Program-made: the position numbers
NCBI GenBank assembly: GCA_965228875.1
Contig: OZ245843.1
Coordinates: 2,152,616 to 2,216,615, forward strand
Reading direction: 5' to 3'
Origin: Thalassobaculaceae bacterium
GTDB lineage: Bacteria > Pseudomonadota > Alphaproteobacteria > Thalassobaculales > Thalassobaculaceae
Length of the DNA stretch: 64,000 nucleotides
Part shown: piece after piece, positions 42,101-45,100 of the stretch
Numbering within the stretch: the stretch's first letter is position 1
Layout: each line of letters opens with the position of its first letter

Positions 42101-45100
42101 GGTTTTCGCGGCTCGAGGGATGGCGGAGCCCAACGCGCTTGGGTAGTATCGCGTCCGTGTGCGGGCGTGGTGAAATCGGTAGACACAACAGACTTCACGT
42201 GGAGTGCCCAGGGGGAAACCCCCGGAGTAGAACCGCTCAAACTCGGGGAAAGCTGACGGATAGCGCCGCTGCCAATCCCGAGCCAAGCCCTCCCCTGGTG
42301 GAGGGAAGGTGTAGAGACTAGACGGGCGACACCTAAGGCCAGGCGGCTAAGGTGAAGGGATAGTCCAGACCACGAACGGAAGCCGCGCGGCCTCCGGCGG
42401 CGAAAGTCGAAGTGGTACGAAAATCTGTATCCCGTATGGGAGTGGGGGTTCGAGTCCCCCCGCCCGCACCACATTTCCCCTACAGGACCGTTCCGGCCGG
42501 TCGACGCGACATTCATGCACCGGGATACGAGGTCGCTATTGCTCGAGGGGACCGCTATCCCTACCTGTACATCCGCATCGGAGGGACCCCATGGCCAACG
42601 CATACCTGCACGTGTTCGAAGATCGCGGCGTCATTCGCCTGTCGGGCGAGGATCGGGTGACGTTCCTGCAGGGGCTGGTGTCCAACGACGTCACGAAGGT
42701 GTCACCCGAACAGGCGGGCTACGGCGCATTTCTGACGGCGCAGGGGAAGTTCCTGTATGACTTCTTCCTGATCGCGTTGGACGACAGCCTCCTGATCGAG
42801 ACCACCGCCGATCGGATCGACGAGTTCCTCCGCAAGCTGCGCATGTACAAGCTGCGCTCCAAGATCGAGTTGAGCGATGCCAGCGAAGCCTGGACCGTCG
42901 CCGCCGTCTTCGGCGACGGCGCGCTTTCGGCGCTCGGGCTGCCGGCGGAGAGAGGCAGCAGCATCCCTCTCGGCGGCGGCATTGCGTTCGTCGATCCGCG
43001 CCATGCCGAGGCCGGCGCCCGCCTGGTGCTCCCGGCCGGCGACGGTGCGACGGACGCGCTCGGCCTCAGGCCCGTGGACCGCGACGCCTACGATCGGCGC
43101 CGGGTCGCGCTCGGCCTGCCGGACGGCGCGCGCGACATGGCCGTCGAGAAGACCGTATTGCTGGAGGCCGGCTTCGAGGAGCTTGGCGGGGTCGACTTCG
43201 ACAAGGGCTGCTATATGGGACAGGAACTGACCGCCCGCACGAAGTATCGCGGTCTGGTCAAGCGTCGGCTGATGCCGATCGCGATCGACGGCCCGCTGCC
43301 GACCCCTGGCACCGAGATCACCCTGGACGGCCGGGAAGCCGGCGAGGTCCGCACGGTGGTCGCCAACGGCGACGGCCAGGAGGGCGGCGGTTCCGGCCTG
43401 GCGATGATCCGTCTGAATAGGCTCGACGAGGCCCTGCGCTCCGGCGCGCCGCTGACCGCCGGCGAGGCGACCGTCATCCCGCACAAGCCGGACTGGGCCA
43501 GCTTCTAGAACGCGATCGGTTCGGATTGGGTCGATCTGAGCCGTGGAGCCCCCCCAAGCCGCTAGGACAGATCGAGGTCATACGATCAGGTGTATCCATC
43601 TGATCGTGGTTGGCCCTCGCCGCGCACTGCGCTGCGGCCGGCTGCGACCGAAGGTCCCGCCCCCATCCCCCCGAAACCGACGCTTCCCGTCGCCATCGGG
43701 AAAACCGCGGCGGCCGCGCGCGATATTGTTCGCTCGGATCCATACACCGCCTCTCGGGGGATGTCGCATGGCCGTGCGCGCCGGTCGGCCGGGGCCGACC
43801 ACCAAGCAACGCTATTCCATCTTCGCGCTGGCGCGGAACGCGCTGAGCTACCACGAGGGCTGGCAGCAGGCCTGGCGCTCGCCGGAACCGAAGAAGGCCT
43901 ACGACGCGATTATCGTCGGCGGCGGGGGTCACGGGCTGACCACCGCCTACTACCTCGCCAAGCTGCACGGCGTGCGCAACGTCGCGGTGCTGGAGAAGGG
44001 CTGGATCGGTGGCGGCAACACCGGGCGCAACACGACGATCATCCGCTCGGGTTATCTCTGGGACGAGTCGATCAAGCTGTACGAGCACGCGCTCAAGCTC
44101 TGGGAGGGCATGAGCCGGGAGCTGAATTTCAACGTCATGTTCAGCCAGCGTGGCGTCATCAACCTGGCCCACAGCGAGCACGAGTGGCGCGAGATGCGTC
44201 GACGCTACGAGGCGATCCGCCTGAACGGCGTCGACATCGAACTGGTCCTGCCGCACGAAATCCAGAAGATGGTGCCGATCATCAACATCGACCCGGATAT
44301 CCGGTACCCGGTGAAGGGCGGAATCCTGCAGAGACGGGGCGGCACCGCCCGCCACGACGCGGTTGCCTGGGGCTATGCCCGGGCGGCCGACGACCTTGGC
44401 GTCGACATCATCCAGAACTGCGAGGTCACCGGTTTCGAGCGCGCGCCGGAAGGCCACATCATCGGCGTGCAGACCACGCGGGGCTTCATCGCCGCCAACA
44501 AGGTCGGCTGCGTGCCGGCCGGACACTCGGCGGTGCTGGCGGAGATGGCGGGCTTCCGGCTCCCGGTGCAGGCCCGGCCGCTGCAGGCGCTGGTGTCGGA
44601 GCCGATCAAGCCCTGCATCGACAAGGTCGTCATGTCGAACGCCGTCCACATGTACATCAGTCAGTCGGACAAGGGCGAACTGGTCCTCGGCGCCGGGACC
44701 GACAGCTACAACTCCTACGCCCAGCGCGGCTCGCCGCACATCCCGGAACACCTGATGGCGGCGACGGTGGAGCTGTATCCGATCACGTCGCGCCTGCGCA
44801 TGCTGCGCCAGTGGGGCGGGATCGTCGACACCTGCCCCGACGCCTCGCCGATCATCTCCCGGACGCCGGTTCCGGGGCTGTACTTCAACTGCGGCTGGGG
44901 CACCGGCGGTTTCAAGGCGACGCCGGGATCCGGGCACGTGTTCGCCGACCTGATCGCCCACGACCGCCCGAACGCGCTGGCCGCGCCCTTCGCCCTGGAC
45001 CGGTTCCGCACCGGCTACCTGGTCGATGAACACGGCGCCGCCGGCGTCGCCCACTGAGCGGGAGGAGAGGAAGAGATGCAGCTGATCCCCTGCCCCTGGT

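Follow-up and report, generated by a model that had tools for sequence, protein, structure and literature searches.

A group I intron in the only tRNA-Leu(UAA) gene of a Thalassobaculaceae bacterium and the probable replacement of the native intron-less allele

Introduction

The group I intron of the cyanobacterial tRNA-Leu(UAA) gene interrupts its host between the first and the second base of the anticodon (CUU/intron/AAAA). It is small and without an open reading frame, ends with a G, has the U at position -1 engaged in a U.G wobble and makes the sole decoder of UUA dependent on splicing. The gene which we describe here shares these features. Unlike the cyanobacterial case, however, it resides in an alphaproteobacterium of 67.8% G+C, and the likeness is one of site and features. 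The entire tRNA-Leu(UAA) locus is said to recombine in cyanobacteria, going by the title of a 2002 paper of Rudi, Fossheim and Jakobsen, which would be the same route as suggested below. In two cyanobacterial metagenome-assembled genomes (G460, G461) we found only tRNA-fMet introns and a 714-nt tRNA-Arg(CCU) intron and no Leu intron.

Proteobacterial hosts have also been described. In tRNADB-CE 2008, 14 Burkholderia with an intron-bearing tRNA-Leu(TAA) gene are reported, and there too the missing UAA anticodon led to the recovery of the gene (PMC2686568). Burkholderia belongs to the Betaproteobacteria, and the likeness to our gene is by the description given in that report. Introns are also described in tRNA-Arg(CCU) genes of alpha-proteobacteria and in the tRNA-Ile(CAU) gene of Azoarcus (PMC4033280). 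They have the same conserved core but interrupt different tRNAs at a different position of the anticodon loop. Williams reports a map of 5292 intron-split bacterial tRNA genes from thousands of genomes, in which the Leu.3Ug site is one of four classical classes (Williams 2020, bioRxiv 10.1101/2020.01.27.920355). The split gene is thus not new in kind, as it has the classical U34/A35 site and a well-known, widespread type of intron. The initial annotation of this DNA overrated its novelty, since the Burkholderia cases and the catalogue of Williams precede it.

Results

Layout and detection of the split gene

The tRNA-Leu(UAA) gene is split in two and located on the plus strand at positions 42161-42471 of the window (the whole stretch of 64,000 nucleotides analyzed here), equivalent to positions 2194776-2195086 of the contig. 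Exon 1 (42161-42195, +) comprises the 5′ strand of the acceptor stem, the D arm, the 5′ strand of the anticodon stem as well as C32, U33 and U34, and its 3′ end reads ...ACAGACTT up to position 42195. A 224-nt intron without open reading frame follows (42196-42419, +). It starts with CACGTGGAGT and closes with ...GTGGTACG, the last base being G42419 (omega G). Exon 2 (42420-42471, +) opens with AAAATCTG and contributes A35 and A36, the 3′ strand of the anticodon stem, the long variable arm, the T arm, the 3′ strand of the acceptor stem and A73, with CCA encoded at 42469-42471. The tRNA-Leu(UAA) is of class II, and the insertion separates U34 from A35, directly after the first anticodon base. 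When the exons are joined at these coordinates, ARAGORN recognizes a tRNA-Leu(taa) of 87 nt with a perfect cloverleaf, a long variable arm and discriminator A. The coordinates, the intron length and the length of the joined tRNA in the initial annotation were exact.

With default settings, ARAGORN detects no tRNA in the window and 52 in the whole genome. The leucine anticodons among them are GAG, UAG, CAG (twice) and CAA, whereas UAA is absent from all 52; standard annotation indeed lacks this decoder, as had been claimed. Allowing for introns, the program does report a split gene here, and its outer ends and intron length of 224 nt agree with ours; however, the splice site is misplaced, the label is Phe (gaa) and about 90 other split calls in the genome are mostly spurious. 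The split gene is the only tRNA-Leu(UAA) gene of the genome.

Other features at the locus were examined as well. At 42399-42471 the tmRNA model gives a weak match (15.8 bits, cut-off 47), which is the T arm and the acceptor end of the tRNA and not a tmRNA. Three overlapping open reading frames (42055-42603 on the minus strand, 42139-42321 and 42412-42660 on the plus strand) match no Pfam family, and we read them as shadow frames of a G+C-rich genome. A scan of 41950-42650 for promoter and terminator consensus returned no site of either kind, which is uninformative at this G+C content.

Fold and covariation of the intron

On 5 kb of sequence the Rfam model Intron_gpI (RF00028) matches over its full length (1-253) with 48.1 bits and E 2.9e-10. 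At E<=0.01 it is the only match in the 4.96-Mb genome, in line with what had been noted. The score is 2 bits short of the gathering cut-off of 50 bits. This shortfall reflects the model and is no argument against the fold. According to Williams, who worked with thresholds of about 18-20 bits, the Rfam model that he employed had 12 seeds, none of them bacterial (Williams 2020, bioRxiv 10.1101/2020.01.27.920355). We place the intron tentatively in subgroup IC3, because, as the same source reports, all four classical classes of bacterial tRNA introns are assigned to IC3 in an intron database (bioRxiv 10.1101/2020.01.27.920355).

We aligned 55 homologous tRNA-Leu(UAA) introns from different genomes (alignment A1, 58 pairs, 3189 cells). 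Of the cells, 97.3% are paired, and in 30 of the 58 pairs both partners have changed in a compensatory manner, which strongly supports the fold. The observed values were not matched by any of 500 shuffles, and slid controls were paired to 30-47%. All 55 sequences have the terminal G and, at the 5′ splice site, the U.G wobble, both of which had been pointed out in the initial annotation. The conserved core helices P3-P8 including the pseudoknot formed by P3 and P7 are found, and every helix maps onto the plus strand of the window.

P1 (42193-42204; columns 6-10/23-27 of A1) pairs exon bases C42193, U42194 and U42195 and intron base C42196 with G42201-G42204 around the loop ACGU, the wobble being U42195.G42202. 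With four pairs and a tetraloop this P1 is very short, as it is in relatives from many genomes; column pair 10/23 cannot form here because, in our reading, the loop would be 2 nt. The P2 hairpin (42205-42229) carries a GAAA loop and one A.C mismatch (42210/42223), and seven of its ten pairs are compensatory. P3 consists of the strands 42233-42238 and 42324-42329. Column pair 58/183 of this helix alternates between UA (33 sequences) and CG (22 sequences), and among the aligned homologues ours alone has a mismatch at the terminal pair, C42233/A42329. P4 and P5 with an extension of P5 occupy 42243-42281: P4 (42243-42248/42276-42281) is invariant in 55/55, and at pair 76/105 of P5 (42252-42253/42271-42272) 31 sequences have CG and 24 have GC. 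The P6 hairpin (42288-42305) has compensatory changes in three of five pairs and the P8 hairpin (42330-42354) in six of seven. P7, which is presumably the guanosine-binding helix, is formed by GACUA (42316-42320) and UAGUC (42361-42365). All its cells are paired and two of the five pairs are compensatory, with AU changed to GC in four sequences and UA to CG or GC in two. The 3′ part (42377-42409) contains P9 (42377-42380/42393-42396; three of four pairs compensatory) and a second hairpin with a GAAA loop (42398-42409; two of four). Among the 136 columns conserved to at least 90%, our copy departs from the consensus in one (the others: median 1, maximum 5), and neither the exons nor the core show an excess of change at conserved positions.

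Homologous introns in the Alphaproteobacteria

Homologous introns occur in 51 of 400 evenly drawn Alphaproteobacteria of other species. The homology extends to introns at the same site, the classical class Leu.3Ug: a tRNA-Leu(UAA) gene is interrupted there in 24 of 29 loci of the class sample, in at least 30 of 80 named loci and in two of nine family loci. The named loci were taken from at least 120 stretches found, of which 80 (L045-L124) were examined. We counted a locus only when exon 1 had a tRNA-Leu-like start and ended with ACTT and exon 2 started with AAAAT, and left out four partial Leu-looking loci (L053, L075, L082, L101). This strict rule was chosen as brute-force splicing with ARAGORN over-calls Leu(taa) and gave this label to several loci with exons that we read as tRNA-Arg(CCU). 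Exons of the latter type, with the same core motif, are present in 3 of the 29 class-sample loci and in several named ones (Bartonella, Phyllobacterium, Mesorhizobium, Skermanella), and in the tree these introns cluster apart, as a clade of their own (100/98).

Introns of this type also occur within the family, namely in 22 of its 62 other genomes. Seven of the nine family loci fetched are tRNA-Leu(CAA) genes and two are tRNA-Leu(UAA) genes. The fetched family introns are 67-77% similar to ours, whereas the best matches from other families reach 75-80%, and the tree does not group our intron with those of its own family. Therefore the nearest relatives of the intron appear to belong to other families, as first proposed. 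The branch support for this placement is moderate (80-93 ultrafast bootstrap, with the bootstrap not converged).

Decoding of UUA and proposed splicing

A rough set of 3694 high-GC3 open reading frames (about 1.39 million codons) contains 284 in-frame TTA codons in 250 frames. The count of 334 codons in 191 genes given earlier holds in its order of magnitude. Because the tRNA of the split gene is the only reader of UUA, translation of some 300 UUA codons would hang on splicing.

We suggest that splicing proceeds in the following steps. The primary transcript would fold into the P1-P9 core with the P3/P7 pseudoknot. An external guanosine would then attack after U42195, the base in the U.G wobble of P1. 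Exon 1, once released, would in turn attack after the terminal G42419, while the anticodon stem holds the exons together, and the product would be the 87-nt class II tRNA-Leu with its encoded CCA. Splicing presumably happens and is probably autocatalytic in vivo. The contigs of four sequencing runs, two of them guessed to be RNA, contained no joint across 42196-42419. Some contigs have loose ends at 42195 and run on with AAAAT...; they derive from other organisms, whose tRNA-Leu genes lack the intron, differ from ours at 3 of 36 nt and have a different exon 2.

The intron could be real but require a host protein or an RNA chaperone in vivo, in which case the tRNA would still mature and read UUA. 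Several tRNA-Leu introns of plastids are not known to splice by themselves in vitro, and the P1 of only four pairs, together with the mismatches in P2 and in the terminal pair of P3, fits with such a need. The catalytic core, however, is at consensus apart from the single conserved column, and the short P1 is shared by relatives in many genomes. We thus regard the dependence on a helper as rather unlikely, and autocatalytic splicing as the preferred reading.

Probable replacement of the intron-less gene

All ten congeners carry an intron-less tRNA-Leu(UAA) and none has the intron. The sequence pattern of the intron-less gene, reported in the initial annotation to be missing here, indeed gives no match in this genome, matches in 10 of 10 congeners and none with the control, and a remnant of the native gene is not found in this genome. 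The congener genes are nearly identical to one another. Compared to the split gene, only 60 of 87 exon positions are identical, and the acceptor stem is among the 27 differing positions. The exons of the 15 most similar intron-bearing genes of other genomes are 84-90% identical to ours, the range over all compared being 70-90%.

Upstream of the split gene lies an alpha/beta-hydrolase gene (41225-42058, +; Pfam Abhydrolase_6, E 6.5e-23, and synteny). In seven congeners the tRNA-Leu(UAA) gene follows the same hydrolase gene. The claim that the replacement took place at the locus used by all ten congeners accordingly stands for seven of the nine native loci fetched (the copy of G004 is outside this set); those of G001 and G002 have another context and adjoin tRNA-Leu(CAA). 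A protein search with the hydrolase, with records near the window excluded, yielded one distant match, from Pseudolabrys (33%). Directly 3′ of the split gene is a gene for a YgfZ/CAF17-type folate-binding protein (42591-43508, +; Pfam GCV_T and CAF17_C), which is 19-57 kb away from the tRNA gene in three congeners where a single contig carries both. Between the hydrolase gene and ygfZ, a putative replaced cassette of about 485 nt (42074-42558) has no nucleotide similarity to the congeners and contains nothing but the split tRNA gene and its spacers. In blastn comparisons the congener loci end at 42034-42073 of the window and pick up again at 42559-42562. The spacers on both sides of the split gene match none of the fetched loci except for about 30 nt beside ygfZ, so that no donor was found.

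Since the congeners are intron-less, the exons agree in only 60 of 87 positions and seven congeners have their gene in the same slot after the hydrolase, the best reading of the split gene is that of a whole-gene replacement. In the order of events that we suggest, a foreign gene, exons and intron together, would have replaced the resident intron-less tRNA-Leu(UAA) behind the hydrolase gene; the site is also a rearrangement breakpoint. A single inversion as model for the downstream rearrangement was dropped because the hydrolase-tRNA block would then be inverted relative to ygfZ as well, which is not seen.

Alternatively, the intron-bearing gene might already have occupied this locus in the ancestor of the genus, with later loss of the intron in the ten congeners. 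The shared locus would fit with vertical descent, as would the homologous introns in 8 of the 16 other genera of the family. But loss of an intron should leave like exons, and those of the congeners differ at 27 of the 87 aligned positions. Furthermore, the spacers on either side cannot be aligned, and the fetched family introns are mostly in tRNA-Leu(CAA), with the two tRNA-Leu(UAA) ones in other clades. We therefore consider vertical descent improbable and prefer the whole-gene replacement.

Discussion

Taken together, we think it probable that a group I intron at U34/A35 makes the only UUA decoder of this bacterium dependent on splicing, and that the gene is of foreign origin and replaced the native allele. 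A decaying pseudogene would be a different matter: the intron would no longer splice, UUA would be effectively unassigned or poorly read and the leftover codons would be tolerated. UUA is extremely rare here (about 284 among the 1.39 million codons of the rough set), the C.A mismatch in P3 is unique to this copy and the terminal branch in the tree is long (0.53). Yet in-frame TTA is still found in a few hundred open reading frames, the cloverleaf is perfect and the conserved positions of exons and core are without excess change. Moreover, contigs of an independent seawater metagenome contain a 98%-identical strain which has kept the gene with 2 changes in 311 nt, while the 119-nt downstream spacer has accumulated 10 substitutions and a deletion. 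One of the two changes is a G at 42329 which restores the sole broken pair of P3. A pseudogene is thus very unlikely. A mere chance resemblance of unrelated tRNA-like fragments, to which the Rfam score under the cut-off and the many false split genes of the ARAGORN intron option might point, is ruled out by the pervasive covariation and by homologues (67-80% identity) which at least 54 other genomes have in the same tRNA and at the same site.

No other leucine codon of this genome is nearly as rare as UUA, and a precedent for a rare-codon tRNA which gates translation is bldA of Streptomyces. As the sole UUA decoder would mature only via a ribozyme step, the efficiency of splicing, with Mg2+, GTP and temperature as determinants, could gate translation of the few hundred genes with UUA codons. 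Intron-bearing tRNA-Leu genes, in turn, may spread in the form of whole-gene cassettes, each landing beside the resident intron-less allele and then displacing it. Both ideas are speculative and we hold them to be improbable. In two other genomes, 77-nt tRNA-Leu(UAA)-like sequences adjoin the intron-bearing genes. If cassettes do spread in this manner, these sequences would be intermediates of displacement.

The value of the split gene is mainly practical. The default tRNA finders and the Rfam cut-off miss it, so that the genome seems to be without a decoder for a sense codon, and any inference of codon reassignment, of unassigned codons or of the completeness of the tRNA set from such annotation is misled. 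The gap is common, since 51 of 400 alphaproteobacterial species have a homologue, most of those checked in tRNA-Leu(UAA). Software for intron-split tRNA genes exists with tFind (Williams 2020, bioRxiv 10.1101/2020.01.27.920355). The locus also bears on the old question, without settling it, whether tRNA-Leu introns are ancient or have spread laterally, and within one genus it would provide a clean and datable case in which an intron-bearing tRNA gene displaces an intron-less one as a whole gene.

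The split tRNA-Leu(UAA) gene

The sole tRNA-Leu(UAA) gene of this genome (42161–42471, + strand) very probably contains a real group I intron which is removed to yield a working tRNA. The sequence matches the description in the initial annotation. Exon 1 of 35 nt (42161–42195, +; 3′ end ...ACAGACUU) is followed by an insert of 224 nt (42196–42419, +) whose last base is G, and then by exon 2 of 52 nt (42420–42471, +), which starts with AAAAUCUG and encodes CCA at its 3′ end (42471). The exons were concatenated by coordinates in a script and then given to ARAGORN, which returned a tRNA-Leu(taa) of 87 nt; its acceptor stem has seven pairs, its variable arm is long and its discriminator base is A. 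The exon junction falls between the first and the second anticodon base (U34|A35), the site classically occupied by the tRNA-Leu(UAA) intron of cyanobacteria and plastids.

By default ARAGORN finds no tRNA in the window. Its count for the complete 4.96-Mb genome is 52 tRNAs; the Leu anticodons among them are GAG, UAG, CAG (twice) and CAA, and UAA is missing. The intron option of the program does report the split gene with identical outer ends and a 224-nt intron, but it misplaces the splice site, and the call stands among about 90 others which are mostly spurious. A weak Rfam tmRNA match at 42399–42471 (+; 15.8 bits, cut-off 47) stems from the T arm and the acceptor end of exon 2 and does not point to a tmRNA gene.

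The genome contains neither a second gene with a UAA anticodon nor a remnant of the genus-typical tRNA-Leu(UAA), and tRNA-Leu(CAA) does not decode UUA under standard decoding rules. In a rough set of 3694 ORFs with high GC3 (1.39 million codons) there are 284 in-frame TTA codons, spread over 250 ORFs, against 6037 TTG and 126,832 CTN codons. The earlier count of 334 UUA codons in 191 genes is of the same order of magnitude. We infer that the intron is actually spliced; none of the contigs compared with the locus shows the joined exons.

Evidence for a group I intron

The Rfam model Intron_gpI (RF00028) matches 42186–42380 over the whole model with 48.1 bits (E = 2.9e-10, 5 kb searched), which falls below the cut-off of 50 bits, and it has no second match in the genome at E ≤ 0.01. 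The stronger evidence comes from homology. When 400 other species, sampled evenly across the Alphaproteobacteria, were searched with the intron alone, 51 of them had a relative of 67–80% identity; among good-quality genomes the figure is 46 of 337, the window genome included. Removal of an intron of 202–264 nt at U34|A35 gives a tRNA-Leu(UAA) of 86–90 nt in 24 of the 29 best loci fetched. In three of these 29 the exons read as tRNA-Arg(CCU), and two of the introns lie in other tRNAs.

We aligned 55 tRNA-Leu(UAA) introns (the window copy, 24 sampled loci and 30 from named public contigs) and counted pairs for a structure comprising the anticodon stem, P1–P9 and the P3/P7 pseudoknot. Standard pairs occupy 97.3% of 3189 cells, and both-sided changes occur at 30 of the 58 pairs. 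In 500 column shuffles none of the five measures was ever reached, and pairing falls to 30–47% when the partners are slid by 1–3 columns. All 55 introns have the U.G wobble at the 5′ splice site and end in G. On the + strand of the window, P1 is located at 42193–42204, P2 at 42205–42229, P3 at 42233–42238/42324–42329, P4 at 42243–42248/42276–42281, P5 at 42252–42253/42271–42272, P6 at 42288–42305, P7 at 42316–42320/42361–42365, P8 at 42330–42354 and P9 at 42377–42396, with an additional GAAA-capped hairpin at 42398–42409. P1 is short (four pairs and a tetraloop), as in the closest relatives. The initial observation is confirmed, and the interpretation attached to it is supported.

At 136 columns which are at least 90% conserved the window copy lacks the majority base once; the other 54 depart at a median of one and a maximum of five of these columns. 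The sole departure, A42329, gives a C.A mismatch at the last P3 pair. A contig of an independent seawater metagenome spans all 701 nt compared and differs by 13 substitutions and one gap. Position 42329 is G in this contig and the 311-nt gene has one other change, while the 119-nt downstream spacer has 10 substitutions and a deletion. Because assembled contigs and not reads were compared and the upstream spacer is also well conserved, this may be taken only as a sign that the split tRNA gene is not decaying.

Relation to known tRNA introns

The intron belongs to a well-known kind. According to tRNADB-CE (PMC2686568), 14 Burkholderia species were missing tRNA-Leu(TAA) and the genes were then recovered with introns, by the same missing-anticodon logic as in the initial annotation. 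The preprint by Williams (bioRxiv 10.1101/2020.01.27.920355) surveys 80,413 bacterial genomes and maps 5292 tRNA genes split by introns. It counts Leu.3Ug (CUU/intron/AAAA), the class inserted at U34|A35, among four classical classes with together 3453 introns, remarks that the then-current Rfam model was without bacterial seeds, and supplies software and a better model. A review table (PMC4033280) lists group I tRNA introns of cyanobacteria, alpha- and beta-proteobacteria. Our literature search found no paper that deals specifically with the Leu(UAA) form in Alphaproteobacteria; it may be covered by the preprint's table of phyla.

A pattern scan with one genome per species gave at least 120 matches. 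We examined 80 of these loci and found the tRNA-Leu(UAA) form in Rhodovulum steppense, Sphingomonas yantingensis, Bradyrhizobium lablabi, Bradyrhizobium sp. RDT10 and Paracoccus sp. ME4, and also in the gammaproteobacterium Carnimonas nigrificans, many Acidobacteriota MAGs and a Binatia MAG. The same intron core motif interrupts several other tRNAs of diverse phyla (loci L043, L044, L049, L063, L103 and others), the hosts being Sphingomonas cremea, a Pyrinomonadaceae MAG, Vibrio agarilyticus, Saccharibacteria, Anaerolineae and Planctomycetia. In the cyanobacterial MAG G460 a tRNA-Arg(CCU) (L182:1427–2146, −) carries a 714-nt group I intron (RF00028 39.8 bits and ARAGORN intron mode), whose length could accommodate an ORF.

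In tRNA-Leu(CAA), homologous group I introns of 218–244 nt are found at seven loci of the family (L172–L174, L176–L179) and in a Thalassobaculaceae MAG (L123, OY729512.2). Their insertion site, U33|C34, precedes that of the Leu(UAA) introns by one base, so that U at −1 is kept; with the introns removed ARAGORN gives tRNA-Leu(caa) of 86–87 nt in all eight cases. They form a separate clade (support 100/99) and may be among the 17 new classes of Williams 2020 (bioRxiv 10.1101/2020.01.27.920355). The tRNA-Leu(CAA) of the window genome itself has no intron.

Probable replacement within the genus

All 10 congeners carry an intron-less tRNA-Leu(UAA), and none has a homologous intron. Their genes are nearly identical among themselves but match the window gene at only 60 of the 87 positions, and the acceptor stem differs. 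Between the window exons and the closest 15 intron-bearing tRNA-Leu(UAA) genes of other genomes the identity is 84–90%; over all such genes compared it is 70–90%. A shared locus had been claimed for all 10 congeners; it is shown for seven of the nine native loci fetched, in which tRNA-Leu(UAA) directly follows the homologue of the alpha/beta-hydrolase gene (41225–42058, +). In the window genome the slot after this gene holds the split gene. Nucleotide similarity to the congeners ends at about 42073 and restarts at about 42559, just before ygfZ (42591–43508, +). The roughly 485 nt in between, which contain no gene but the split one, therefore differ. In the three congeners with both genes on one contig (G006, G009, G010) ygfZ lies 19–57 kb beyond tRNA-Leu(UAA). 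This interval is absent here, and the homologues of its end genes are found inverted 101–128 kb upstream, at contig positions 2066.9–2067.9 kb and 2092.4–2093.5 kb. The 3′ flank of the split gene (42472–42590) is a rearrangement breakpoint.

A second difference from the genus adjoins the tRNA slot. A 506-aa histidine kinase ORF (39519–41039, +; HisKA and HATPase_c) fills about 1.9 kb where the congeners have a gap of about 80–180 nt between the homologues of 38.9–39.4 kb and of the hydrolase gene. Three extra tRNA-Leu(UAA) genes (L013 on C15, L006 on C8, L014 on C42) are present on other contigs in the assembly of congener G004, which has 3% contamination. One belongs to a tightly packed cluster of 12 low-G+C tRNA genes resembling a phage or a contaminant; another is identical to the window gene in the exon 1 region from the D arm to the anticodon loop, without the intron.

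In the family, the homologous intron is present in 22 of 62 other genomes and 8 of 16 other genera (67–77% identity); seven of the nine loci fetched have it in tRNA-Leu(CAA) between U33 and C34 and two in tRNA-Leu(UAA). In a maximum-likelihood tree of 64 introns the window intron stands apart from these two, in a mixed clade with Paracoccus sp. ME4, Rhodovulum steppense, a Bradyrhizobiaceae MAG, a Novosphingobium MAG, Caulobacteraceae MAGs and several families lacking names. The supports on its path are 80–93 (ultrafast bootstrap, not converged) and its terminal branch is long.

Two unrelated alphaproteobacterial genomes (G205 and G312) contain, about 1.5 kb from the intron-bearing gene, a tRNA-Leu(UAA)-like sequence of 77 nt (L184:2150–2230, −, and L185:2165–2241, −) with a Leu-type D arm and a CUUAAAA loop and without the long variable arm; ARAGORN recognises one but not the other. 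These sequences may be remnants or hybrids of a displaced intron-less allele. Of five single-contig genomes with the intron, three gave no match to the pattern of an intron-less copy.

Our search found no donor of the split gene. Its origin is best read as a lateral transfer in which it replaced the whole resident gene, and this reading is probable. We hold with good confidence the full statement, in which the intron of the only tRNA-Leu(UAA) gene is also strictly self-splicing and the gene has this history of replacement. The case is useful in two respects, as it exposes an annotation gap and provides a clean example of whole-gene displacement inside a single genus.
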